The notes beneath the pieces were generated by a model that saw only the letters and a list, made by a program, of their open reading frames with translations, did not search any database and was not told the origin of the DNA. DNA of 64,000 nt from Escherichia coli. Its GTDB lineage: Bacteria > Pseudomonadota > Gammaproteobacteria > Enterobacterales > Enterobacteriaceae. Below, one piece after another: positions 1,019 to 51,351 of the stretch (position 1 is its first letter; the number at the start of each line of letters is the position of its first letter). A program made the translations under genes and the position numbers. The stretch lies in NCBI RefSeq assembly GCF_024223415.1, contig NZ_CP100500.1. The stretch is one strand, 5' to 3'.

Positions 1019-2296
1019 ATGAAAACCAAAGTTGCTGCTATTTATGGCAAGCGGGATGTCCGTCTGCGCGAATTTGAACTGCCAGAAATTACCGATAATG
1101 AATTACTGGTGAGTGTGATTTCTGACAGCGTCTGTTTATCCACCTGGAAAGCGGCGTTACTCGGTAGTGAACATAAACGCGTACCCGACGATTTAGAAAA
1201 TCATCCGGTCATTACCGGGCATGAATGTGCCGGGGTTATTGTCGAAGTGGGTAAAAATCTCACTGGCAAATATAAAAAAGGCCAGCGTTTTGTATTGCAA
1301 CCGGCGATGGGGTTACCAAGCGGATATTCAGCGGGCTACAGCTACGAATATTTTGGCGGCAATGCCACTTATATGATTATTCCCGAAATCGCCATTAATT
1401 TGGGCTGCGTATTACCGTATCACGGCTCTTATTTTGCTGCGGCGTCGCTGGCAGAGCCTATGTGCTGCATTATTGGTGCTTATCATGCCAATTATCACAC
1501 CACGCAATATGTTTATGAGCATCGCATGGGCGTCAAACCTGGCGGTAATATTGCACTGCTGGCGTGTGCAGGTCCGATGGGCATTGGCGCTATCGATTAC
1601 GCCATTAACGGCGGCATACAACCGTCGCGGGTGGTGGTGGTCGATATCGACGACAAACGTCTGGCGCAGGTACAGAAGCTGCTGCCGGTGGAACTGGCGG
1701 CCAGTAAAGGCATTGAGCTGGTGTATGTGAATACCAAAGGGATGAGCGATCCTGTCCAGATGCTGCGGGCGCTGACAGGAGATGCCGGGTTCGATGACAT
1801 TTTTGTTTATGCGGCGGTGCCTGCTGTCGTTGAGATGGCTGATGAATTACTGGCGGAAGATGGCTGTCTGAACTTCTTTGCCGGGCCGACGGATAAAAAC
1901 TTCAAAGTGCCGTTTAATTTCTACAACGTTCATTACAACAGCACGCACGTCGTCGGTACATCCGGCGGTTCAACGGGCGACATGAAAGAGGCGATTGCCC
2001 TTAGCGCCACTGGGCAGTTACAGCCGTCGTTTATGGTGACCCATATCGGTGGCCTGGATGCGGTGCCAGAAACCGTGCTCAATCTGCCGGATATCCCTGG
2101 CGGTAAAAAACTCATTTATAACGGCGTGACCATGCCGCTCACTGCCATTGCCGATTTTGCCGAAAAAGGCAAAACCGATCCGCTGTTTAAAGAGTTGGCG
2201 CGGCTGGTTGAGGAAACGCACGGCATCTGGAATGAACAGGCCGAGAAATATCTGCTGGCACAATTTGGCGTTGATATCGGGGAGGCCGCGCAATGA
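1019..2296 (+). CDS. yggP: putative zinc-binding alcohol/polyol dehydrogenase
   Basis: 425-aa ORF; synteny downstream of cmtA. Confidence 0.85.
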   Translation: MKTKVAAIYGKRDVRLREFELPEITDNELLVSVISDSVCLSTWKAALLGSEHKRVPDDLENHPVITGHECAGVIVEVGKNLTGKYKKGQRFVLQPAMGLPSGYSAGYSYEYFGGNATYMIIPEIAINLGCVLPYHGSYFAAASLAEPMCCIIGAYHANYHTTQYVYEHRMGVKPGGNIALLACAGPMGIGAIDYAINGGIQPSRVVVVDIDDKRLAQVQKLLPVELAASKGIELVYVNTKGMSDPVQMLRALTGDAGFDDIFVYAAVPAVVEMADELLAEDGCLNFFAGPTDKNFKVPFNFYNVHYNSTHVVGTSGGSTGDMKEAIALSATGQLQPSFMVTHIGGLDAVPETVLNLPDIPGGKKLIYNGVTMPLTAIADFAEKGKTDPLFKELARLVEETHGIWNEQAEKYLLAQFGVDIGEAAQ

Positions 2297-3258
2297 TGTC
2301 CCTGGCGTGGCCATTATTTCGCGTTACGGAACAGGCAGCGTTGGCTGCCTGGCCGCAAACCGGATGTGGCGACAAAAATAAAATTGATGGCCTGGCGGTC
2401 ACCGCGATGCGCCAGGCATTAAACGACGTCGCTTTTCGTGGACGAGTGGTTATCGGCGAAGGAGAAATTGACCATGCGCCGATGCTGTGGATTGGCGAAG
2501 ATGTGGGCAAAGGCGATGGACCAGAAGTCGATATCGCGGTTGATCCCATTGAAGGCACGCGGATGGTGGCGATGGGGCAGAGCAATGCGCTGGCGGTCAT
2601 GGCTTTCGCCCCTCGAGATAGCCTGTTACATGCGCCCGATATGTATATGAAAAAGCTGGTTGTTAATCGACTGGCTGCCGGGGCGATTGATCTGTCTTTG
2701 CCTCTGGCGGACAACTTGCGTAACGTGGCGCGGGCGTTAGGTAAACCGCTGGACAAGCTGCGCATGGTTACGCTGGATAAACCGCGTCTGAGTGCCGCGA
2801 TTGAGGAAGCAACACAGCTGGGGGTGAAAGTTTTTGCCCTGCCGGATGGCGATGTCGCCGCCAGCGTGCTGACCTGCTGGCAGGATAATCCTTACGATGT
2901 GATGTACACCATCGGCGGTGCGCCAGAAGGCGTGATTTCTGCCTGTGCCGTTAAAGCATTAGGCGGGGATATGCAGGCCGAGCTGATTGACTTTTGTCAG
3001 GCTAAAGGGGATTACACGGAAAATCGGCAGATTGCAGAGCAGGAGCGCAAGCGTTGCAAGGCAATGGGCGTTGACGTTAACCGTGTGTACTCGCTCGATG
3101 AACTGGTGAGGGGGAACGATATCCTCTTTAGCGCTACGGGCGTCACGGGCGGCGAGTTGGTGAACGGTATCCAACAGACGGCGAATGGGGTGCGGACGCA
3201 GACATTACTGATCGGCGGCGCGGACCAAACGTGTAATATAATAGACTCCCTGCATTGA
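2293..3258 (+). CDS. yggF: fructose-1,6-bisphosphatase class II (GlpX paralog)
   Basis: 321-aa ORF; 4-bp overlap with yggP stop; synteny. Confidence 0.85.
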   Translation: MMSLAWPLFRVTEQAALAAWPQTGCGDKNKIDGLAVTAMRQALNDVAFRGRVVIGEGEIDHAPMLWIGEDVGKGDGPEVDIAVDPIEGTRMVAMGQSNALAVMAFAPRDSLLHAPDMYMKKLVVNRLAAGAIDLSLPLADNLRNVARALGKPLDKLRMVTLDKPRLSAAIEEATQLGVKVFALPDGDVAASVLTCWQDNPYDVMYTIGGAPEGVISACAVKALGGDMQAELIDFCQAKGDYTENRQIAEQERKRCKAMGVDVNRVYSLDELVRGNDILFSATGVTGGELVNGIQQTANGVRTQTLLIGGADQTCNIIDSLH

Positions 3259-3279
3259 TGGTGATCTATCGGAAGACCA

Positions 3280-3789
3280 ATGGCGACGCTGACAGAAGAT
3301 GATGTGCTTGAGCAACTGGATGCACAGGACAATTTATTTTCATTTATGAAAACTGCGCATTCTATTTTGCTCCAGGGGATACGCCAGTTTCTGCCGTCGC
3401 TGTTTGTCGATAACGATGAAGAGATCGTCGAATATGCAGTGAAGCCGTTACTCGCCCAAAGCGGCCCGCTTGACGATATTGATGTCGCACTGCGTTTGAT
3501 TTATGCGCTGGGGAAAATGGATAAATGGCTGTACGCCGATATCACGCATTTTTCCCTGTTCTGGCATTACCTGAACGAACAGGATGAAGCGCCCGGATTT
3601 GCCGATGACATGACCTGGGATTTTATCAGCAACGTCAATAGCATAACCTGCAATGCGACGCTCTATGACGCGTTGAAAGCGATGAAGTTCGCCGATTTCG
3701 CCGTCTGGTCAGAGGCGCGTTTTAGCGGAATGGTCAAAACGGCGCTGACGCTGGCAGTAACGACCACCTTAAAGGAATTAACGCCGTGA
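3280..3789 (+). CDS. yggD: MtlR-like small protein (reported as fumarase E)
   Basis: 169-aa ORF; synteny. Confidence 0.8.
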   Translation: MATLTEDDVLEQLDAQDNLFSFMKTAHSILLQGIRQFLPSLFVDNDEEIVEYAVKPLLAQSGPLDDIDVALRLIYALGKMDKWLYADITHFSLFWHYLNEQDEAPGFADDMTWDFISNVNSITCNATLYDALKAMKFADFAVWSEARFSGMVKTALTLAVTTTLKELTP

Positions 3790-4499
3790 AAATTGAATTA
3801 ACGGTGAATGGGCTGAACGTGCAAGCGCAGTACCATGATGAAGAGATAGAACGCGTGCATAAACCGTTGCTGCGTATGCTGGCGGCCTTACAGACGGTAA
3901 ATCCGCAGCGCCGAACCGTGGTTTTTCTTTGCGCTCCGCCGGGGACGGGGAAATCTACCCTAACCACCTTCTGGGAATACCTCGCGCAACAAGACCCGGA
4001 ACTGCCCGCTATTCAGACGCTGCCGATGGATGGTTTTCACCATTACAATAGCTGGCTGGATGCGCATCAATTGCGCCCCTTCAAAGGCGCACCAGATACA
4101 TTCGATGTGGCGAAACTGGCGGAAAATCTGCGCCAGGTAGTGGAAGGGGATTGTACGTGGCCGCAATACGATCGACAAAAGCATGATCCGGTTGAAGATG
4201 CGTTGCACGTTACCGCACCACTCGTCATCGTCGAAGGAAACTGGTTGTTGCTGGACGACGAGAAGTGGTGCCAGCTTGCGCAATTTTGTGATTTCTCGAT
4301 CTTTATCAACGCGCCAGCTACTGCGTTGCGGGAACGACTGGTAGGGCGCAAGCTGGCGGGAGGGGTATCGCTGGCAGATGCAGAAGCTTTTTATGACCGT
4401 ACCGACGGGCCGAATGTTCGCCGGGTGCTGGAAGAGAGTCTGCCTGCAAATTTGACTTTAATGATGACCGCTACGGGTGAATATCGTCTGGTGGATTAA
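3786..4499 (+). CDS. yggC: P-loop nucleoside/pantothenate-kinase-like protein
   Basis: 237-aa ORF with Walker A motif PPGTGKST; overlaps yggD stop. Confidence 0.85.
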   Translation: MKIELTVNGLNVQAQYHDEEIERVHKPLLRMLAALQTVNPQRRTVVFLCAPPGTGKSTLTTFWEYLAQQDPELPAIQTLPMDGFHHYNSWLDAHQLRPFKGAPDTFDVAKLAENLRQVVEGDCTWPQYDRQKHDPVEDALHVTAPLVIVEGNWLLLDDEKWCQLAQFCDFSIFINAPATALRERLVGRKLAGGVSLADAEAFYDRTDGPNVRRVLEESLPANLTLMMTATGEYRLVD

Positions 4500-5148
4500 C
4501 GTTCCTGATTAGACCATCTTCCAGTCGCACCACACGAGAGAAATGACGCCGGGTAAATGCGGCGTCATGACTGATTGCTACGACGCTCGTGCCTCGCTGG
4601 CGGCACTTCTCCAGCCAGCTTTCAAACACGCTCAACCAATTTTCGTCAAAATCCCGACTCGGCTCGTCCAGCAGCAATAGTGGCGGAGAGAGTGCTTCCA
4701 GGCAGGCGACGGCGACCATCCGTCGCTGCGCACTATGCAGATCCAACGGGTGCGCGTTGGCAGTGTCTGCTAACTGACAACATTGCAGGGCAGCATGGGT
4801 ACGTTGAGTGATTTCATCCGCCGGGCATTTTTGCAGTTTCAAACCAAATGCGATCTCGTCAGCGACGGTGCTGTGAAAAAGTTGGTTTTCCGCTTCCTGA
4901 AACAGTACGCCAATCTTTGCCGCGCGCTGGCGGTTTTTCAGGTTTTTCATCGCCTGTTGTTGCAGCATAACCGTACCGGCTGTGGGCGTAAGAAGACCTG
5001 CCATTACTCGTAACAGCGTCGATTTCCCTGCGCCATTGTCGCCGGTCAGCGCCAACCATTCACCTTGTTTGAGTTGCAGAGAAATGTCGCAAAGACAATC
5101 CGTTGCCGCGCCAGGCCAGCGATAAGATATCTGATTTAACGTTAACAT
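4471..5148 (-). CDS. ECF/ABC transporter ATPase, second subunit, degenerate signature motif
   Basis: Walker A GDNGAGKST, Walker B LLLLDEP, H-loop ISHD, but LHSAQRR in place of LSGGQ; ATG at 5148 lies 1 nt upstream of the stop of the preceding ATPase gene (ATGnTAA); 3' end overlaps yggC convergently. Confidence 0.7.
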   Translation of the reverse strand: MLTLNQISYRWPGAATDCLCDISLQLKQGEWLALTGDNGAGKSTLLRVMAGLLTPTAGTVMLQQQAMKNLKNRQRAAKIGVLFQEAENQLFHSTVADEIAFGLKLQKCPADEITQRTHAALQCCQLADTANAHPLDLHSAQRRMVAVACLEALSPPLLLLDEPSRDFDENWLSVFESWLEKCRQRGTSVVAISHDAAFTRRHFSRVVRLEDGLIRNVNPPDDIHP

Positions 5149-5825
5149 AGTGGCTGGAGCGCTCCGTTTTGCAATTGCCACGCTTGCTGGCAGTAGTTCA
5201 GGAAAGGTGTGCGATGACGTTCAAAAAGAATAATCAGCGAACCACGTTCAAACGCCCAGTGTTGTAAGCGCTGCAACAGCATTTCGCTGGCCTGCGGCGT
5301 CAGGCGGCTAAAGGCTTCATCAAGAATTAATAGCTTTGGCTGCATCGCGATGGCGCAGGCGATGACCACGCGCTGTGTCTCTCCACCGGAGAGTGTTGCC
5401 GGGTGACGATGGCGCAACGGCTGGCACTCGGTCAGAGTCAGGGCGGCATCAATCCGAGCCATAATCTCTGCTTCAGCAAGACACAGATTTTCTGGCCCAA
5501 AGGCAACTTCTTCTTCCACGCTAAAGGTACAGCCGGAGAGCTGCAAATAGGGCGATTGCTGGACGAGCTGGATGGTGGCGGATTGTTCATTAAGCGGGAG
5601 ATGCCCAATGGGCGTACCGAGGAGCGTCCCCGTGCCTGTTATCTCTCCTGGCAGAAAGTCCGGATACCAGCCCGCCATCAGCTGTGCCAGCGTACTTTTG
5701 CCACTGCCGTTGTCACCAAAGATGGCGACCATCCCCGGTTTGACATAGTGAAAGTCATAACAGAACGGAGGATGTGTTGAGTGTGTCGGGCAATAACGGA
5801 ACTGTTCTAACGTAACCATATCCAC
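5142..5825 (-). CDS. ECF/ABC transporter ATPase, first subunit
   Basis: Walker A GDNGSGKST, canonical signature LSGGETQR, Walker B LLILDEA. Confidence 0.75.
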   Translation of the reverse strand: MDMVTLEQFRYCPTHSTHPPFCYDFHYVKPGMVAIFGDNGSGKSTLAQLMAGWYPDFLPGEITGTGTLLGTPIGHLPLNEQSATIQLVQQSPYLQLSGCTFSVEEEVAFGPENLCLAEAEIMARIDAALTLTECQPLRHRHPATLSGGETQRVVIACAIAMQPKLLILDEAFSRLTPQASEMLLQRLQHWAFERGSLIILFERHRTPFLNYCQQAWQLQNGALQPLC

Positions 5826-6514
5826 GCTCCGAATTCTGTCAGCATCAGCAAGATCATGGTGTAACGCGCTACGCGTTGTAGGGTGCTATCGGCTGGTGCC
5901 CACAACGTTGTTCGTCGATTGTGGATCCGAAATGCCCGCATATCCAGCGCCGCACCACGGACAGCAAGATCGTTTAGCGCATTGTGTGTTAGCGGAATAA
6001 TTAACGCGGGCATCGCACGTAAACGCTGATACCAGCCCTCATCCAGCGGCACGCCGCGGGCACGCTGCGCTTCATGAATAATCGCTAATTGCCGTTTTAA
6101 CTGCTCAACGACCAATAACGGCCCGGCAAACAGATAAGCGACGCCTGGCGGCAGGCGAGAAGCAAACAGAGCGCGGATAAAACATTGCACGGGGACGTAC
6201 TGCATCCACAACTGTGAGGTTGAAACAATCGCCAGAATCCGCAACCAGAGCGTAATAGCATGCGTCCAACGCTCCGGCGAACGCGGCGTGCCGCTTAGCC
6301 ATTCTGTTAGCCAGCCACCGTGTACCAGCCACAGCCCGGCTCCCAGCGAGAACATCAGCCAGACGACATATTTTGCCCGCCGCCGCGTGGCCTTTAGCGC
6401 AATAAGGCAGAAAAAGGTCGCCGCGCTATAGATCGGCAAAATGGTCTGCGCGGGCAGGATAAGCGTGGTGCAGGCCGCCAATGCCCACAGTGTTAATGAG
6501 GTAAATGGATGCAT
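5807..6514 (-). CDS. ECF transporter transmembrane T component (CbiQ/EcfT-like)
   Basis: Hydrophobic 235-aa protein with Ala-Arg-Gly motif (EAQRARGVP); start ATG directly abuts stop of upstream S gene (TAAATG). Confidence 0.65.
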   Translation of the reverse strand: MHPFTSLTLWALAACTTLILPAQTILPIYSAATFFCLIALKATRRRAKYVVWLMFSLGAGLWLVHGGWLTEWLSGTPRSPERWTHAITLWLRILAIVSTSQLWMQYVPVQCFIRALFASRLPPGVAYLFAGPLLVVEQLKRQLAIIHEAQRARGVPLDEGWYQRLRAMPALIIPLTHNALNDLAVRGAALDMRAFRIHNRRTTLWAPADSTLQRVARYTMILLMLTEFGAWIWLR

Positions 6515-7093
6515 TTAGCGCACGGCAGCCATTGCCGGAAAATGGCGCGTGGTGCGAATCGGCAGCTGGCGCAGTAAAAGCCAGACAATCACCGCTGTAA
6601 GAGTTTTATCGACCAGGTTCGCGCCTATCACCGTAATCGCCACCGACTCCACCAGGTTTTGCCCCATCGAGTGCATCCAGGCAACGAACAAATCGGCTCC
6701 GCTACCGGTGACACCGCCGAACAGCGCAGTACGCAGCGGTACAGCGACGACCGTTACCGCAAGCGTAATAATCACGCCGCTGACAACGACTTTTGGCAGG
6801 GTGCGGAACCAACCCGCTCGCGCCAGCCAACCGGCGACCAGGCCGATGACCATCGCCACGGGCGCAAATGCGGCGGCGATCGGGTCGGTCAGCAATCCCC
6901 AGAGTAAATTGGTCAGTAAACCGGTCAGCATCCCGATCACCGGACCAAGCAGTACCGCGCTAATAAGTGTGCCGATGGAGTCGAGAAATATAGGTAATTT
7001 GACCATGCTGGCCAGTTGCCCGCCGATCATATTGATGGCGATAGATATAACGATTAACACCAGCGCCTGACTGGAAAAGTGGCTACGCGCCAT
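6515..7093 (-). CDS. small integral membrane protein, candidate ECF substrate-specific S component
   Basis: About 192 aa of mostly hydrophobic helices; preferred start ATG 7093 with GAGAGG Shine-Dalgarno upstream (track ORF extends to 7192); position immediately upstream of T and A genes. Confidence 0.55.
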   Translation of the reverse strand: MARSHFSSQALVLIVISIAINMIGGQLASMVKLPIFLDSIGTLISAVLLGPVIGMLTGLLTNLLWGLLTDPIAAAFAPVAMVIGLVAGWLARAGWFRTLPKVVVSGVIITLAVTVVAVPLRTALFGGVTGSGADLFVAWMHSMGQNLVESVAITVIGANLVDKTLTAVIVWLLLRQLPIRTTRHFPAMAAVR

Positions 7094-7115
7094 AAGAAAA
7101 CCTCTCTGAAAGTAG

Positions 7116-7547
7116 TTATTTAACGGGGGAAATATGCAACTCGTCGTAACCAGAAAGCGCGCAAGGTTGGCGGCTAAACGCCAGTTCCTCAAGGCTACCG
7201 ATCACCAGTTCAAGCGTGGTCCGCACGGTACAGCCGGGCATCATATGACCGCCAAGCATCGTGCCGTGTGGATCGGAAACGCAGAGATGAAGATGCTCAC
7301 CACTCTGTTCCAACGTGCCGTTTAGTGAGATCACTTCGAATGTACCGTTCAGGAGCGTGGTGCCTTCTTGCCCGGCATAGCGCAAGGCGATGTCAGTCAG
7401 GCTACCGGTACAGCCTGCAATCCAGGCGGCATGAAGTTGCTGCTGCTGTGCAAAAGCGTGTAGCTGGGAAAAAACTTCCTGCCCGGGGAGGAGGCGCAGT
7501 GCGTAAAAGCGTGCGGAGGAAGAATATGGGTAGGGCAATGTCATCAT
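7116..7547 (-). CDS. small soluble protein, possibly DUF296/PPC-domain family
   Basis: 143-aa ORF, first gene of the minus-strand operon; family assignment from memory of sequence character only. Confidence 0.45.
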   Translation of the reverse strand: MMTLPYPYSSSARFYALRLLPGQEVFSQLHAFAQQQQLHAAWIAGCTGSLTDIALRYAGQEGTTLLNGTFEVISLNGTLEQSGEHLHLCVSDPHGTMLGGHMMPGCTVRTTLELVIGSLEELAFSRQPCALSGYDELHISPVK

Positions 7548-7918
7548 TGGAGTACTCCGAAACTCGGACGTATTGCGGATAATATCGACGCTGCATCAGT
7601 CATATTCTGATATAAGTCAGGGTTTGTGACGGCACAACGAAAAGATTTTGCTACGCTTATTCGTGATTCTGCAAAGTGGAATAAATTCCACAGGGGCGGG
7701 GCTGAAAACGTGACGTAAGTCAGATAATTGTCTTCTTTGACTGGACAATCATTCCTTTTATTCCACGTTTCGCTTATCCTAGCTGAAGCGTTTCAGTCGA
7801 TTAAATGTTCGACAATTAACCAATCAGTCGCAGTTTGCGACAGGTAAGGTTTCCCCGGACGATTTGCTGGATTACTCTGTCTGGCAAATTTGCTCAGGGA
7901 AAACCTTGCAGGAGATCT

Positions 7919-8938
7919 ATGACCGTACGCGTAGCGATAAATGGCTTCGGTCGCATCGGGCGTAATGTGGTTCGTGCTTTGTATGAATCCGGACGCCGGG
8001 CGGAAATTACCGTGGTGGCAATCAACGAACTGGCGGATGCTGCGGGCATGGCGCATTTGTTGAAATATGACACCAGCCATGGCCGTTTTGCATGGGAAGT
8101 ACGACAGGAACGCGATCAACTTTTTGTTGGTGATGACGCCATCCGCGTATTGCATGAACGTTCACTGCAATCGCTCCCCTGGCGTGAACTTGGCGTTGAT
8201 GTAGTCCTCGACTGCACCGGCGTATATGGCTCCCGCGAGCATGGCGAAGCGCATATTGCCGCCGGGGCCAAAAAAGTGCTCTTTTCACATCCTGGCAGTA
8301 ACGATCTCGACGCGACCGTTGTTTACGGCGTCAATCAGGATCAACTTCGTGCGGAACACCGCATCGTTTCTAACGCTTCCTGTACCACGAATTGCATAAT
8401 TCCCGTCATCAAATTGTTAGATGATGCGTACGGTATTGAGTCCGGCACTGTGACCACAATTCACTCCGCCATGCACGATCAACAGGTTATTGATGCATAC
8501 CATCCTGACCTGCGTCGCACCCGGGCAGCCAGCCAGTCGATCATTCCGGTCGATACTAAACTGGCCGCCGGTATCACACGATTTTTTCCGCAATTTAACG
8601 ATCGCTTTGAAGCGATTGCGGTACGTGTGCCAACCATAAATGTGACGGCAATCGATTTAAGCGTGACGGTGAAGAAACCTGTAAAAGCCAATGAAGTCAA
8701 CCTGTTGCTGCAAAAAGCAGCACAAGGTGCATTTCATGGTATAGTTGACTATACGGAATTGCCGTTGGTCTCTGTAGATTTTAACCACGATCCGCACAGT
8801 GCCATTGTCGATGGCACCCAAACCCGGGTCAGTGGCGCACACCTGATCAAAACGTTGGTCTGGTGCGATAACGAATGGGGCTTTGCTAACCGAATGCTCG
8901 ACACGACGTTAGCTATGGCTACTGTTGCTTTCAGGTAA
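7919..8938 (+). CDS. epd: D-erythrose-4-phosphate dehydrogenase
   Basis: Starts [15 protein letters not shown] (GAPDH-family NAD-binding motif), 339 aa; AGGAG Shine-Dalgarno; upstream part of the track ORF rejected. Confidence 0.95.
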
Positions 8939-12720: not shown

Positions 12721-13764
12721 TTAACGCATTGTTTCATCAAGTATATTGGCAACTTTTTGCATGACTTCCCCGGCATTATCCACGCCTTCAGTTTTTTGCT
12801 GTTCTACCCACTGCGTTTGCTCTTGCTGATAACCAATCGCTTTCTGCCAGGCGTCCAGCTCTGATTTTTTCAAATAGCGAACCTGTGCACCTTCCTGCTC
12901 AAGCGTTTTTACCATGCTGATCAGGTTGTTATCTAATGCCTTGCCCAGCGCTTTCTCGGTTGTAATGGCCGCTCGTTGAATAGCCTCACGATCTCTGTTA
13001 TCAAGGTTTTCCCACGTTTGTTTATTCATTACCAACAGATAAACATGACCAAGCCAGAGCGAAGGGGAGAGCAACACATTCGGCGCAGCACGTTCAGCAT
13101 GGATGTCATATCCGCTATCAAGATTGACCATTAAGCCATCGAGTTGTCCGTCGCGGAGTGCTGTCGTAATTTGCTCATTCCACGGTAAGGTTACGGTTTT
13201 TGCCCCCGTATGAGTTAAATAAGCCCGGTGCCAGAAACTGGCTGTTCGCCAGGTGGTTCCCTGAAGTGCAGTCAATTTATCAATGGGCCTGGTAGAGAAA
13301 AAGCCTACCGGGTAGCCAAGGAAAAACTGTAAATTCACGATATTGTTACGCTCAAGTTCAGCGTTAAACTCGGGAATTTCCGCATATACGCGACGAAAGA
13401 ATTCTACCTGACTGGCTCCATGATCCGGGCCAATAGCAAAGCTCTTGAAGATTTGATGAAGCGGTAATTGTTTCGCTGTGTATTCCGGTACCACTATACC
13501 CATATCAGCTTTGCTACCATCACTTATTGTCGTCAGAGCGTCATAGCTGATGGCGGTTTCACCGTTCCAGTGTGGTTCGATTTTCAAACGCCCCTGCGAC
13601 TCTTTTTCAATTTCTGCAAAAAATATCTCTTTAATTATTTGTGTACGCATTCCCCCGTAGGGTTCATGGTCTGTATAACGAAGAATTTTTTCAGCGGCAA
13701 CGTTGTGGGAAGATATCAGAAGTAATCCTGATACCAGAGAAAGTAAAAAGTGTTTGAATGTCAT
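12721..13764 (-). CDS. secreted DctP-like (TRAP-type) solute-binding protein, orphan
   Basis: Signal-peptide-like N-terminus MTFKHFLLSLVSGLLLISSHNVAA when started at ATG 13764 (track ORF starts 13806); FFAEIEKESQGRLKIEPHWNG resembles the conserved N-terminal region of DctP-family binding proteins as I recall it; no permease genes adjacent. Confidence 0.55.
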   Translation of the reverse strand: MTFKHFLLSLVSGLLLISSHNVAAEKILRYTDHEPYGGMRTQIIKEIFFAEIEKESQGRLKIEPHWNGETAISYDALTTISDGSKADMGIVVPEYTAKQLPLHQIFKSFAIGPDHGASQVEFFRRVYAEIPEFNAELERNNIVNLQFFLGYPVGFFSTRPIDKLTALQGTTWRTASFWHRAYLTHTGAKTVTLPWNEQITTALRDGQLDGLMVNLDSGYDIHAERAAPNVLLSPSLWLGHVYLLVMNKQTWENLDNRDREAIQRAAITTEKALGKALDNNLISMVKTLEQEGAQVRYLKKSELDAWQKAIGYQQEQTQWVEQQKTEGVDNAGEVMQKVANILDETMR

Positions 13765-13818
13765 CTCAGTTCCATCTGTAATTTTATTGGTCGTCATTAA
13801 TATCAAAAACCGTGAACT

Positions 13819-14748
13819 TTAACAACTAAAATCGAACTTCATATTTTTAAAGTCCAGCCACGCATTGCCAGTACCAAAATTATACCCGCCGAAGTATTCT
13901 TCAAATTCAATATAAAAAGGTGACATTCCATCTGGTATAGATTGAAATGGAACCATTGAACCACCGAGATGATCGGGTTGATGTGCACTATGCCACTGGT
14001 GAGTTTCACATTTACTCTTTCCCTCTGCATCTTTAGAAAAATAACGAATGGACTGATATTCCGTATTATTTCTTTCTGTGGGGCTAATTCCCGCATTAGG
14101 ATCAAAAGCGCGCGGCTTACATGAAATCGCCAGATTGAAAGCCAGCGACTGCTCAGGAATGGTGCCCATTTTACGGTATACAAAATTGCTTTCAGGCGTA
14201 TCTTTTGGTCTGACGCTTGCCTGAAAATAACTAAACGCACTGCCGGTGGTCATCCATTCTGGTGTATCTTGCTGGTTGCGATAGTGATTAGGTATAAGTT
14301 CAGGCGGTTCACAAAATGGGCCGTTGAACTCTTGCTGGGTGAGTAAAATCACCGCATAAGAACAACCTAATATATCTTCCATCCGAAATAGCCGTGGATG
14401 TCGTTGCTTTTCTGCCAGCCAGAAAACATAAAGGTCTGGATCTTCGGGGGGGGTGCAGGACTCGAAACTCTCAAACACATCCAATATTTCTTCTGTACAT
14501 GGTGTTCTGCCATCGTTGTGCTCGGGCGCAACAGCAAAGAAAGATAACGCGACAATCTCTGGCCCATAAATCCGATAATCTTCTGGCAACAACAGGGTAA
14601 ATCCATGATTCAATGGGAAACCATTATTTGGATCCAGCGGCCACTGTTCGGGCGTTATGCCTGGCGGTAGGCCAAAGCACCAACCTTGTTGGCGCGGTAT
14701 ATTTTCGCGAATAGGATGGGGCAAGAGGGTAAGATCATAAGCATGCAT
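13819..14748 (-). CDS. hypothetical cytoplasmic protein, 309 aa, unknown function
   Basis: ATG at 14748 preceded by AAGGA Shine-Dalgarno; no signal peptide or transmembrane segment evident; hand-counted 60-nt stretches give roughly 37-40% GC versus about 50% in neighbouring genes. Confidence 0.6.
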   Translation of the reverse strand: MHAYDLTLLPHPIRENIPRQQGWCFGLPPGITPEQWPLDPNNGFPLNHGFTLLLPEDYRIYGPEIVALSFFAVAPEHNDGRTPCTEEILDVFESFESCTPPEDPDLYVFWLAEKQRHPRLFRMEDILGCSYAVILLTQQEFNGPFCEPPELIPNHYRNQQDTPEWMTTGSAFSYFQASVRPKDTPESNFVYRKMGTIPEQSLAFNLAISCKPRAFDPNAGISPTERNNTEYQSIRYFSKDAEGKSKCETHQWHSAHQPDHLGGSMVPFQSIPDGMSPFYIEFEEYFGGYNFGTGNAWLDFKNMKFDFSC

Positions 14749-16587: not shown

Positions 16588-17484
16588 ATGGACATTTTTA
16601 TTTCGAAAAAGATGCGCAATTTCATTTTATTAGCGCAAACCAATAATATTGCCCGGGCGGCAGAAAAAATCCATATGACGGCTTCGCCATTTGGTAAAAG
16701 CATTGCCGCGCTGGAAGAACAAATTGGCTATACGCTATTTACCCGTAAAGATAATAATATCAGTCTCAATAAAGCCGGTCAGGAACTGTATCAAAAGCTG
16801 TTCCCGGTTTATCAACGGCTTTCTGCGATTGATAATGAAATCCATAACTCAGGACGTCGTTCACGAGAAATTGTGATAGGCATAGATAATACTTATCCGA
16901 CAATTATTTTTGATCAGTTGATTAGTCTCGGAGATAAGTATGAAGGCGTGACCGCCCAGCCAGTTGAGTTCAGCGAAAATGGCGTTATCGATAATCTTTT
17001 TGACCGCCAGTTAGATTTTATTATCTCCCCACAGCATGTATCTGCACGAGTTCAGGAACTGGAAAACCTGACTATCAGTGAACTACCACCGCTGCGATTA
17101 GGCTTTCTCGTTTCTCGCCGTTATGAAGAGCGTCAAGAGCAAGAGCTGCTTCAGGAGCTGCCCTGGCTACAAATGCGCTTTCAGAACCGGGCCAACTTCG
17201 AAGCAATGATTGATGCGAATATGCGACCTTGTGGGATCAATCCAACCATTATTTATCGTCCCTACAGTTTTATGGCCAAAATCAGCGCCGTGGAGCGCGG
17301 ACATTTTCTGACGGTGATCCCGCATTTTGCCTGGCGACTGGTGAATCCGGCAACGCTGAAATATTTTGATGCACCGCACAGGCCGATGTATATGCAGGAA
17401 TATCTTTATTCAATCAGAAATCATCGTTATACCGCCACGATGCTTCAGCATATTGCTGAAGATCGTGACGGGACGAGTCATTAA
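16588..17484 (+). CDS. ygfI: LysR-family transcriptional regulator
   Basis: 298 aa with N-terminal helix-turn-helix; synteny next to scpC. Confidence 0.8.
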   Translation: MDIFISKKMRNFILLAQTNNIARAAEKIHMTASPFGKSIAALEEQIGYTLFTRKDNNISLNKAGQELYQKLFPVYQRLSAIDNEIHNSGRRSREIVIGIDNTYPTIIFDQLISLGDKYEGVTAQPVEFSENGVIDNLFDRQLDFIISPQHVSARVQELENLTISELPPLRLGFLVSRRYEERQEQELLQELPWLQMRFQNRANFEAMIDANMRPCGINPTIIYRPYSFMAKISAVERGHFLTVIPHFAWRLVNPATLKYFDAPHRPMYMQEYLYSIRNHRYTATMLQHIAEDRDGTSH

Positions 17485-18959
17485 CCCAGCATCGAGCCGG
17501 TTGCAATTAAATTACGGTGTAAGTCGAAGACGTGGCTAAGATCGTGGTGAATATGTCCGCCAGGCGCATTTTCCAGATAGCGATGCAGATAATCCCGATA
17601 CATAGGATGTGCACAATTATCAATGATCGTGCGGGCGCGTTGAAGCGGGGAAAGACCGCGCAGATCGGCGATCCCTTGTTCGGTGATGATCACTTTGACG
17701 CTGTGTTCGCTGTGATCAACATGGCTGCACATTGGCACGACGGTTGAGATCTTGCCTTCTTTAGCAATCGACGGGGCCATAAAGATCGACAGATACGCGT
17801 TGCGTTCAAAATCACCGCTGCCGCCGATGCCGTTCATCAGATCGACCCCGGCTACGTGCGTTGAGTTGGCATGCCCGTAAATATCAAACTCCAGGCCGAC
17901 GTTCAGAGCGATGACGCCCAGACGACGGATGATTTCCGGGTTATTGGAAATCTCCTGCGGACGCAACACAATGCGGCTGGCAAAGTAATCCATATTGTCG
18001 TAAATCTTGCGCAGGGAATCGGCCGAGATTGTCAGGCTGGAGGCGCTGGCCCCGCTGATTTTGCCGGTTTCCAGTAAATGCACCACCGATTCCTGTAGCA
18101 CTTCCGAATACATCATAAACGGAGGAATTTCCGGGTTTTCCCCCAGACGCGCCATTACCGCATTATTGATATTGCCCACGCCACTTTGCAGCGGCAGAAA
18201 TTCCGGCGGAATACGCCCATGCGCCATTTCCTGCAATAAGAACGTGACCACGTTATCGGCAATCTGCTGGCACATGGGATTTTGCTTATCCAGCATATTA
18301 CCGGCGTCAGGCAAGTTGGTTTCCACGACGGCGACAATCTTTTTCGGATCGATTTGCACATAGCGGGTACCGACGCGATCCATTGCATGGAAGATCGACA
18401 CGCTATTACGCCGCGGTGGCGCGCCAGGAATCACAATATCTGCCAGTTCTGCAACGCGCGGATCGTGATAGTGATTAAGTTCAATGATCACTTTCTTCGC
18501 CCGCAGCAGCCATGTCGGCGCATTACCGATCCCGCTGGTTAACCAGACTCGACCATCCGGTGCCAGTGCCGATGCTTCGATGACGGCAACATCAATGTCG
18601 CCGAAGAAACCGTAATTGACCATTTGCGCCACTTCGCTCAAATGCAGGTCAACGAAACTCACCGCGCCCTGATTGATCTTTTTACGTAAACCGGACGATG
18701 TTTGATATGGCGCACGCCAGGAAACAGCATCGGCGTCAGAAAGTACATCGTCAGCGGCGGCGCTGATTGACGCCCCCGTCAGCAGGCGAATTTGATACGG
18801 CTTTTTGGCCTCATGCTGTTCGTTAGCTCTGCGGGCAATCGCGGTGGGTAGGGCTTTCGGCGAACCCGCTGGGGTAAAGCCGCTAAATGCCACCATGTCG
18901 TTATGCTGGATAATTTCTGCCGCTTCATCGGCGGTCATCCTTGTCCACTGAGTTTCCAT
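17481..18959 (-). CDS. scpC: propionyl-CoA:succinate CoA transferase
   Basis: 492-aa CoA-transferase-family ORF; synteny in sbm operon. Confidence 0.9.
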   Translation of the reverse strand: METQWTRMTADEAAEIIQHNDMVAFSGFTPAGSPKALPTAIARRANEQHEAKKPYQIRLLTGASISAAADDVLSDADAVSWRAPYQTSSGLRKKINQGAVSFVDLHLSEVAQMVNYGFFGDIDVAVIEASALAPDGRVWLTSGIGNAPTWLLRAKKVIIELNHYHDPRVAELADIVIPGAPPRRNSVSIFHAMDRVGTRYVQIDPKKIVAVVETNLPDAGNMLDKQNPMCQQIADNVVTFLLQEMAHGRIPPEFLPLQSGVGNINNAVMARLGENPEIPPFMMYSEVLQESVVHLLETGKISGASASSLTISADSLRKIYDNMDYFASRIVLRPQEISNNPEIIRRLGVIALNVGLEFDIYGHANSTHVAGVDLMNGIGGSGDFERNAYLSIFMAPSIAKEGKISTVVPMCSHVDHSEHSVKVIITEQGIADLRGLSPLQRARTIIDNCAHPMYRDYLHRYLENAPGGHIHHDLSHVFDLHRNLIATGSMLG

Positions 18960-40397: not shown

Positions 40398-40927
40398 TGA
40401 ACTGCACCCCAAATGTTGGACATAATCTGACATCTGAAGGTGCAGTTTATGAAACATTCATTTGAAGTAAAACTTGCCGCTGTAAATCATTACCTGGCCG
40501 GTCATGCAGGCATCATTTCTACGGCAAAACTCTTTCAACTTTCTCACACCAGCCTCTCACACTGGATTAATCTTTTTCTTCTTCACGGTCCTCAGGCACT
40601 GGATTGCAGACACAAGCGTAGCTATTCTCCTGAAGATAAACTTTGCGTGGTTCTTTATGCTCTCGGGCATTCTGAGTCTCTACCCCGGGTAGCTGCCCGG
40701 TTTAACATTCCCAGCCACAACATGGTTAAAAACTGGATAAAAGGCTACCGCAAATCTGGTAATGAGGCCTTTATCAGGCGCAGGAAGGAGAAAAGCATGA
40801 CCCGTTCTGATGATACCCATGAAAACGAGGCAAACATGACGCCGGAAGAGATGAAGAATGAGCTGCGTTATCTTCGCGCAGAAAATGCATATCTGAAAGC
40901 CATGCAGGAGCATCTCCTGGAAAAAAA

Positions 40928-41829
<902 letters not shown>

Positions 41830-51102: not shown

Positions 51103-51351
51103 AATTTCTCACATGTAATTCTGATCACTCATCATTATAGATAATTGAAGAGTGAAATGATTAACCAAGTGAGCGTTTATCGACAACCGCCCGTTTTGAG
51201 CGGATGTCGACAGGTAAAAACCATTTAAAAAAGTAGCATCATATATTTGAAGCGACTTTCAATGGCCATTGCAACACAGTCAGAAATGACAGGAATAGAG
51301 AGAGTAAAAAGCAACAACAGACTGAATATAGCGCGCATTAAAAGATTCATA

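Follow-up and report, generated by a model that had tools for sequence, protein, structure and literature searches.

The yggC-epd region

The stretch of DNA that we analysed, referred to as the window, comprises 64,000 nt of Escherichia coli contig NZ_CP100500.1 and contains two convergent gene strings whose last genes share their 3' ends. The plus-strand string, cmtA-yggP-glpX(yggF)-fumE(yggD)-yggC, is closed by yggC, which is assigned to the NCBIfam equivalog NF006742 with a score of 522 bits and a model coverage of 1-237/237. The five minus-strand genes, separated by small or negative spacers, form one cluster that starts with lmiA and ends with the ATPase gene that meets yggC. The features are the following:

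3786-4499, plus strand: yggC-type gene (nucleoside/nucleotide kinase family, 237 aa), from the ORF list and PGAP
4497-4499, plus strand: yggC stop codon TAA, read from the sequence
4471-4499, both strands: convergent coding overlap of 29 nt, in which yggC ends as ...TGEYRLVD and the ATPase as ...(V)NPPDDIHP, each followed by its stop
4471-4473, minus strand: stop codon of the ATPase gene, cta in the window and hence TAG, read from the sequence
4471-5148, minus strand: second ECF/ABC ATPase gene (ABC ATPase 2, 225 aa, z4271 counterpart), from the ORF list, Pfam (ABC_tran, 1.3e-27), NCBIfam and PGAP
5142-5819, minus strand: ABC ATPase 1 (z4270 counterpart), from PGAP, Pfam and NCBIfam
5807-6514, minus strand: ECF T component, named by PGAP, with a weak Pfam CbiQ match (21.6 bits, cut-off 25)
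6515-7093, minus strand: ECF S component, Pfam ECF_trnsprt (PF12822, 33.2 bits, cut-off 30.7)
7116-7547, minus strand: lmiA (z4267 counterpart), PPC/DUF296 DNA-binding regulator, Pfam PCC (3.5e-28)
7701-7719, minus strand: published PhoP DNase I footprint of the lmiA promoter, CTTACGTCACGTTTTCAGC, an exact match to the motif in PMC7667037

The minus-strand cluster is the published O-island 119 (OI-119) of EHEC O157:H7 EDL933 (lmiA/z4267 plus z4268-z4271). It has five genes between epd and yggC (~3.1-3.3 kb), its LmiA (WP_000988700.1) is identical in O157:H7 F8092B, and the PhoP footprint has a single exact occurrence in the window, where 0 are expected by chance. OI-119 was described in EHEC O157:H7 by Liu et al., mBio 2020 (PMC7667037), and has been reviewed in PMC8565820; LmiA is an activator of ler/LEE that is itself activated by PhoP and induced by low Mg2+ (PMC7667037). 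In E. coli W, the cluster has been named the "cbiQ-O2 cobalt transport system in the epd-yggC region", and it is absent from three other strains compared, K-12 and B among them (PMC3032704). The overlap with the 3' end of yggC is not mentioned in the OI-119 papers (PMC7667037, PMC8565820) or in the E. coli W paper (PMC3032704).

The 29-nt overlap and the tail of the ATPase

The original prediction placed the two stops at 4499 and 4471, giving an overlap of 29 bp, and the ORFs, the sequence and the annotation all agree with it. The two genes lie on opposite strands and share 3' nucleotides, and both ORFs have homologs and conserved ends. RefSeq places both ends identically in all E. coli genomes checked; the SCU-316 chromosome (NZ_CP054371.1) is 100% identical to the window and is given the same two gene ends by PGAP, under the names nucleoside/nucleotide kinase family protein and ABC transporter ATP-binding protein, and the 29-nt overlap is also annotated in O157:H7 F8092B, one ST131 isolate and one river isolate. 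Of 5426 complete E. coli genomes, 3319 (~61%) matched a 201-bp probe of the junction at an identity of >=95%, and the 225-aa form is by far the commonest among the protein clusters of the ATPase. Because the overlap recurs in so many genomes and the 225-aa ATPase dominates the clusters, a wrong stop caused by a sequencing error or frameshift, which would have undermined the prediction, is excluded. The broader view that the overlap is an annotation artefact, one of the stops being non-functional, for instance in an ATPase pseudogene or in the case of an earlier stop, could appeal to the poor conservation of the overlapped ATPase tail and to its position beyond the ABC core. We nevertheless regard it as hardly credible: both ORFs are full-length, the yggC model is covered completely, the ATPase is matched through the ABC core and lacks an earlier in-frame stop, and the same ends are present in thousands of genomes as well as in sister species.

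The ABC core of the ATPase ends near G212 of ...RVVRLEDG, as positions 1-213 of the 214-position FtsE model align to residues 1-212. The G212 codon (4513-4515) is located only 13 nt from the yggC stop and is followed by a 13-aa tail, LIRNVNPPDDIHP, the last nine codons of which constitute the overlap. This tail varies among close relatives, in which it reads PPDDIHP, PSDDIHP, PPDNIHP, PPGDIHP or PPEDIHP, and the lack of the Escherichia TAG in Citrobacter extends it by five codons (...DIHPQPSSPA). In Klebsiella and Leclercia, which lack yggC, the ATPase ends 2-6 residues past the glycine (RLEKGRLLSIS, RLEAGRLSP and RLEAGRL, each before the stop). A recurrent 279-aa variant has lost the stop and reads 142 nt into tktA, in an assembly of uncertain quality that also splits tktA; with this qualification, it appears to show that the ATPase stop is labile. 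The C-terminal motif of yggC, (L/M)EMT..GEYR, is kept in genomes with and without the island alike; it is therefore yggC that would set the sequence of the overlap, with the ATPase tail riding along. Only the poorly conserved tail, outside the ABC domain, falls in the overlap.

The length of the overlap depends on the frame in which the minus strand enters yggC. In one frame, a TAA at 4511-4509 would prevent any overlap; in a second one, the palindromic TTAA at the yggC stop supplies a TAA, for an overlap of 4 nt; in the frame that the ATPase uses, the first stop, and with it the end of the 29-nt overlap, comes at 4473-4471. The window has 11 annotated convergent junctions, of which three overlap, the other two being scpC/srsR and yqfG/yqfH with 4 nt each. 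E. coli K-12 contains 75 convergent overlapping pairs, which have been put down to stop-codon movement (PMC4161906). Judged by these figures, an overlap of 29 nt does not go beyond chance expectation, and no special explanation is required.

Distribution, haplotypes and age of the junction

A scan for yggC in one genome per species returned 67 loci. An island of these five genes flanked by yggC and epd occurs in E. albertii, E. whittamii, several Citrobacter, C. koseri, Silvania, Superficieibacter, the enterobacterial MAG UBA5654 and Phytobacter, and Salmonella enterica serovar Djakarta and Atlantibacter hermannii add two genera with the overlapping pair, so that conservation of the island and its tail-to-tail overlap extends to eight or more enterobacterial genera. 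Wherever a sampled lineage has both genes, their 3' ends overlap, by 11-92 nt:

Escherichia (E. coli, E. albertii, E. whittamii): 29 nt
Citrobacter: 44 nt
C. koseri: 68 nt
Silvania: 26 nt
Superficieibacter: 41 nt
UBA5654: 92 nt
Phytobacter: 11 nt
Salmonella enterica serovar Djakarta: 32 nt
Atlantibacter hermannii: 44 nt

In none of these lineages is there a spacer between the two genes, an observation that could reflect selection for overlap instead of inertia.

Between Escherichia and the other genera, identity to the window is 67-72% for ATPase 2, 86-91% for the S component, 65-78% for yggC and 72-86% for fumE; the island proteins diverge in step with the flanking genes. The presence of the island is patchy within E. 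coli (61%) and Citrobacter, yet it occupies the same site in at least eight genera. In the cryptic Escherichia L003 and L007, internal deletions have left the 3' part of the ATPase gene alone beside a window-type yggC, remnants that show decay of the island by deletion. Klebsiella pasteurii, Leclercia and a related metagenome contig have the lmiA-ECF operon beside epd and lack the whole cmt-ygg operon, including yggC. We rejected the idea that the functions of yggC and the ECF operon are necessarily linked, as K-12-like genomes on the one hand and Klebsiella/Leclercia on the other carry one without the other.

Within E. coli, about 2100 genomes, a K-12-like laboratory strain included, do not have the five genes and instead show yggC, 284 nt and epd. 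Alignment of this island-free haplotype with the window gave 97-100% identity over the upstream genes and most of yggC, and delimited the following two positions:

4250-4268, no strand assigned: approximate left haplotype breakpoint, inside yggC, where identity in 30-nt bins falls from 1.0/0.87 to 0.57
7676-7685, no strand assigned: right boundary motif GTGGAATAAA, at which homology with island-free haplotypes resumes in E. coli and Citrobacter island-positive/island-negative alignments; it sits ~240 nt upstream of epd

Past the left breakpoint, identity is ~60% up to the yggC stop (30-nt bins 0.38-0.80). Because of this collapse, the left crossover is to be placed inside yggC, 230-250 bp before the overlap, and the 3' third of yggC travels with the island. 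Four-fold degenerate sites differ at 17/25 positions downstream of the break and at 9/62 upstream; the downstream value is as deep as that between E. coli and Citrobacter freundii (20/35). A comparison with the 3' end of K-12 yggC had been proposed as a check on whether the C-terminus is altered, and it does differ: identity over the last ~77-82 aa is 61%, at an equal protein length of 237 aa. The window-type C-terminus is 72-79% identical to Citrobacter outgroups, whether or not these have the island, and the K-12-type C-terminus reaches 57-65% identity to anything sampled, which makes the 3' third of K-12 yggC the odd allele.

These data bear on the original prediction that the ECF operon is a recent insertion, the left end of which is the overlap, with the ATPase 3' end fused onto a yggC whose C-terminus was altered in the process. 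This view may be supported by the existence of K-12-like genomes without the five genes, by the treatment of OI-119 as horizontally acquired in the literature (PMC7667037), and by Citrobacter, in which island-positive and island-negative sequences part exactly at the yggC stop codon. The homology break that an insertion junction requires at the overlap is, however, seen only there; in E. coli the break lies inside yggC, and the claim that the overlap marks one junction of inserted DNA therefore fails. The claimed polarity between a backbone gene and an accessory operon is not supported either: the pair overlaps across Escherichia species and at least eight genera, with a divergence parallel to that of its neighbours, outgroups share the window-type C-terminus so that the K-12 type is the outlier, and Klebsiella and Leclercia keep the ECF operon without yggC. 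Which operon is called "backbone" and which "accessory" depends on the reference chosen. In addition, no mobility genes or tRNA target are annotated near the island in the window, the GC content of the island (0.52-0.57) shows no anomaly relative to its flanks (0.48-0.56), and only short flanking repeats at chance level were found. We therefore consider a recent insertion very improbable. Inverted repeats that pair yggC (4245-4275) with the ATPase gene (4596-4677) were rejected as structural elements; they are accounted for by the resemblance of the LLLD(D/E)E and EK(W)C motifs in the two P-loop proteins, which are encoded on opposite strands.

The simplest reading of the 67 species representatives takes the island haplotype as the ancestral one in Escherichia, in which case the K-12 haplotype would be a replacement. 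If OI-119 is ancestral to Escherichia and many of its relatives, it follows that the K-12 state is derived; it may have been imported through homologous recombination from an unsampled island-free relative.

Transcription termination at the junction

No canonical intrinsic terminator was found near the overlap on either strand (4300-4700), and a scan of 3700-8000 gave no more sites than were found in shuffled sequences. The prediction that there is no room for a terminator thus holds literally for the intergenic space. It should be noted that terminators may sit inside the opposing gene and need not be intergenic. Folding of the 181 nt downstream of each stop was no better than that of shuffles (z -0.59 and +0.97), and a search of 3500-8200 against Rfam at permissive E-values gave no match. 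The C/G ratio downstream of the stops ranges from 2 to 4.3, with maxima of 4.3 on the plus strand and 2.9 on the minus strand, the 95th percentile of the window being 2.14. Such C-rich, G-poor untranslated RNA is the kind of sequence on which Rho would be expected to terminate antisense transcripts. From sequence alone, it is plausible that transcription terminates inside the opposing gene with some overlap of antisense transcripts. Mutual interference of the lmiA-ECF and cmt-ygg operons, which the original prediction took to be implied by the overlap, is a possible and reasonable hypothesis that does not follow from the sequence.

One structure lies close to the junction:

4543-4568, plus strand: 9-bp GC-rich hairpin ATGACGCCG-GGTAAATG-CGGCGTCAT, within the ATPase coding sequence, with a folding energy of -15.5 kcal/mol

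The hairpin begins 44 nt past the yggC stop, is not followed by a U-tract on the plus strand, and is retained in Escherichia, Citrobacter, C. koseri, Atlantibacter, Salmonella and UBA5654. In an alignment of 15 sequences, 89.6% of the cells are paired; as the sequences are few and related, the shuffle control cannot be read as a probability. Two pairs have changed on both sides, from C-G to U-A, by way of a synonymous change at Ala and an Arg-to-Gln replacement. Such compensatory changes hint at a selected RNA element, for which a neutral history of the overlap has no need. In most genera the hairpin is more stable on the plus strand, and the G-U pairs favour this strand in Citrobacter, C. koseri and UBA5654, with the Salmonella intermediate being the opposite: its wobble is compatible with the minus strand only. 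Superficieibacter and Phytobacter encode the peptide ISHDA.FT.RHF without the hairpin, though their genes overlap, and part of the hairpin is kept in Leclercia, which has a real terminator and no overlap. In view of its absence from the first two genera, the minus-strand wobble in Salmonella and the partial copy in Leclercia, we list the hairpin as an uncertain candidate for a 3'-end structure of yggC transcripts.

Two further possibilities were rejected. As a minus-strand intrinsic terminator, the hairpin would be followed by UUUCUCUC or UUUUUC, but it lies 64 nt before the ATPase stop, in the essential H-loop region; the U-run consists of His-Phe-Ser codons that sequences lacking the hairpin have as well, and is not a designed terminator. 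The idea that a remnant of the 5' arm of the island-free terminator hairpin persists past the yggC stop was discarded too, as the similarity between CGTTCCTGATTAG and ATTCCTGTTAAG is too weak.

According to another explanation, the junction has been selected for its regulatory effect: expression of the lmiA-ECF and cmt-ygg operons would be made mutually antagonistic by convergent transcription or by RNase III cutting their complementary 3' ends, with the conserved hairpin being part of the mechanism. In line with this, neither a spacer nor a canonical terminator is ever present where both genes occur, whereas the same ATPase gene always has a bidirectional terminator where it faces tktA; the hairpin is kept, with two compensatory pairs and G-U pairs that are mostly compatible with the plus strand; and the lmiA promoter is inducible (PMC7667037). 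On the other hand, neither the length of the overlap nor the tail sequence is conserved, the occurrence of the hairpin does not follow that of the overlap in Superficieibacter, Phytobacter and Leclercia, RNA near the overlap folds no better than shuffles, and deletion of z4268-z4271 had no phenotype in the adherence assays performed (PMC7667037). Taken together, we consider such a device unlikely. A still less likely, more elaborate version would be a selected convergent-transcription switch, made up of the arrangement without a spacer and the hairpin, in which the lmiA-ECF operon, induced by low Mg2+ and PhoP, silences the cmt-ygg operon or is silenced by it through collision or dsRNA processing, and in which balancing selection maintains the two deeply diverged yggC-epd haplotypes in E. 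coli.

Origin of the overlap and comparison with known systems

The explanation that we favour, and consider probable, is that the overlap is an old, inherited tail-to-tail junction of two operons and not the scar of an insertion. The PhoP-activated lmiA-ECF operon (OI-119) and the cmt-ygg sugar-alcohol operon abut with zero spacer. Because there is no in-frame stop in the 13 nt before the yggC stop, the ATPase frame runs through yggC in antisense; the first in-frame stop 26 nt further on would add a short, unconstrained tail to the ATPase, and stop-codon and indel changes would let the length of this tail drift between lineages, resulting in the overlaps of 11-92 nt. Since there is no intergenic terminator, the transcript of each operon would have to end inside the last gene of the other. 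Termination may mostly be brought about by Rho acting on untranslated C-rich antisense RNA, and the hairpin at 4543-4568 possibly defines the 3' end of yggC transcripts. With both operons expressed at once, complementarity of their 3' ends would extend across tens to hundreds of nt, which may cause a modest mutual damping. The K-12 state (yggC, hairpin, epd) would be a separate ancient haplotype exchanged through homologous recombination, the left crossover having fallen within yggC.

In summary, the two operons meet in a convergent overlap that is ancient and ordinary and borders a gene cluster already in the literature, and convergent overlaps of this size are routine. The junction is unsuitable as an island boundary, and OI-119 does not look like an acquisition of the EHEC lineage but like an ancestral possession of Escherichia and many relatives. 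There is a practical caveat for published OI-119 knock-out work: a deletion of OI-119 or z4271 that extends to the annotated stop takes away or changes 9 codons at the end of yggC and may also affect the 3' end of its transcript. If the antisense coupling is true, the operon of a PhoP-regulated virulence regulator would be tied to a cryptic sugar-alcohol operon.

With respect to known modes of termination, bidirectional intrinsic terminators are reportedly common to convergent genes. The ATPase/tktA pairs of Klebsiella pasteurii and Leclercia, in which the same ATPase gene ends a convergent pair, conform to this: where yggC is missing, a canonical bidirectional terminator composed of an A-tract, a GC-hairpin and a T-tract follows the ATPase gene and is shared with tktA. 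Unlike these pairs, the junction in the window has neither a spacer nor the A-tract/hairpin/T-tract arrangement, and the terminator occurs only where yggC is absent. Antisense transcription is said to be suppressed in a Rho/NusG-dependent manner, and the 3' ends of Rho-terminated transcripts are reportedly defined by hairpins. The C-rich, G-poor untranslated RNA past both stops and the stable hairpin without a U-tract resemble such cases, and a similar mechanism may apply here.

The transporter genes themselves are like those of dedicated (group I) ECF transporters, as an S component (PF12822), a T component and two ABC ATPases are encoded together in one operon with small gene overlaps. Unlike the EcfA models, both ATPases in the window are short (225 aa) and have no C-terminal extension (aligned to 5-231 of 279). 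The S component is related to the CD3073 family and is not an equivalog of it, its score of 134.9 bits against NCBIfam NF045596 being under the cut-off of 180.

As for the overlap, yggC and the ATPase gene share with the convergent overlapping pairs of PMC4161906 their location on opposite strands, a 3' overlap of a few to tens of nt and conservation across species, and, as in those pairs, the extension of one gene reaches the next in-frame stop within the antisense of its neighbour. They differ from the TTAA-type overlaps of 4 nt in the window in that the overlap is 29 nt and varies between 11 and 92 nt among genera. Finally, whereas the OI-119 papers, with K-12 as the reference, treat the island as a horizontal acquisition, it appears here to be ancestral to Escherichia and widespread in the Enterobacteriaceae.

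Mosaic structure and 3' end of yggC

When aligned to the K-12-type allele, the yggC gene of the window (3786..4499, + strand) is a mosaic. Its 3' third (window 4250-4499) shares only about 60% nucleotide identity with that allele, with four-fold sites near saturation, and a small second patch near the 5' end (window 3816-3875) is 73-77% identical, whereas the remainder of the gene is 87-100% identical. The 3' third of the K-12-type yggC itself finds a best match of at most 65% among the species sampled. Two sequence features were found within yggC and the second ATPase gene of the OI-119 island, and a third lies in a K-12-like locus (L002) lacking the island:

yggC (window 4245-4275) and the ATPase gene (window 4596-4677): imperfect inverted repeats, 14-22 nt, 77-93% complementary
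Window 4543-4568, + strand: 9-bp GC-rich hairpin within the ATPase coding sequence, beginning 44 nt past the yggC stop
L002 4504-4553: long hairpin directly 3' of the yggC stop, AATTATTCCAG...CTGGAATAATT

The repeats correspond to peptide motifs that resemble each other (LLLDDEKW versus LLLLDE and LEKC) in two P-loop proteins specified by opposite strands, and their position coincides, by happenstance, with the haplotype breakpoint. The hairpin within the ATPase gene is retained in several genera, with two compensatory pairs, and is missing in others that also have the overlap; it is a possible candidate for the 3'-end structure of the yggC mRNA.

The long hairpin is common to the island-free haplotypes of E. 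coli, Citrobacter and Raoultella (L002, and also L008, L014-L017 and L020), and together with its flanks reaches up to about -40 kcal/mol.

The epd-side boundary and the lmiA promoter

The 3' arm of the island-free hairpin, GGAATAA, recurs at window 7676-7685, where it forms the epd-side boundary of the island. The yggC genes of Lelliottia, Huaxiibacter and one Enterobacter MAG instead read into this motif, ending ...RME* with the stop inside GGAATAA. The PhoP footprint published for the lmiA promoter (window 7701-7719, - strand) falls within a zone that is alignable yet diverged between the island and K-12 haplotypes, the K-12 sequence at this position being GATAAAAGTGTGATGTGAG; therefore, the lmiA regulatory region is partly shared epd-upstream sequence.

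Other features of the window and of the public records

Elsewhere in the window, the following features were observed:

17482-17485: scpC/srsR convergent coding overlap, 4 nt
51226-51229: yqfG/yqfH convergent coding overlap, 4 nt
12721-14514, - strand: hypothetical protein gene and orphan C4-dicarboxylate TRAP-transporter substrate-binding protein gene, between argO and mscS
40450-41798: IS1397 transposase (IS3-family, programmed frameshift), between ygfZ and trhA

No TRAP-transporter membrane components are annotated near 12721-14514. Regarding the loci from other genomes, in the Citrobacter sp. HRGM_Genome_0066 MAG (L004, L019) the yggC locus of one contig is 93-98% Escherichia-like and a second contig bears a yggC of the Citrobacter type, and L024, titled 'Chryseobacterium sp. 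18061', carries a typical enterobacterial cmt-ygg-epd locus. These records probably reflect binning or labelling errors in public databases.

Decayed islands and other arrangements

Other forms of the locus were found in other genomes:

L003 (Escherichia sp. MOD1-EC7003) 6714-7305: decayed island
L007 (Escherichia sp. E1V33) 6714-7353: decayed island
L052 (Buttiauxella sp. B2) 1-884 and 2242-6690: different gene arrangement

In both decayed islands, the second ATPase gene keeps only its 3' part, which internal deletions have joined to the lmiA promoter and the first lmiA codons; the yggC/ATPase overlap and the hairpin are still present. In L072/L073 (Klebsiella pasteurii), L081 (Leclercia), L082 and L083, the cmt-ygg operon is absent and the lmiA-ECF operon adjoins epd; here, the ATPase gene is convergent with tktA across a spacer of 44-161 nt containing a canonical bidirectional terminator. 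One variant of the ATPase, 279 aa long, overlaps tktA by 142 nt. In Buttiauxella sp. B2, lmiA and the S-component gene lie upstream of, and divergent from, cmtA-yggP-glpX-fumE-yggC, and epd directly follows yggC; the two gene sets are neighbours once more, in another arrangement.
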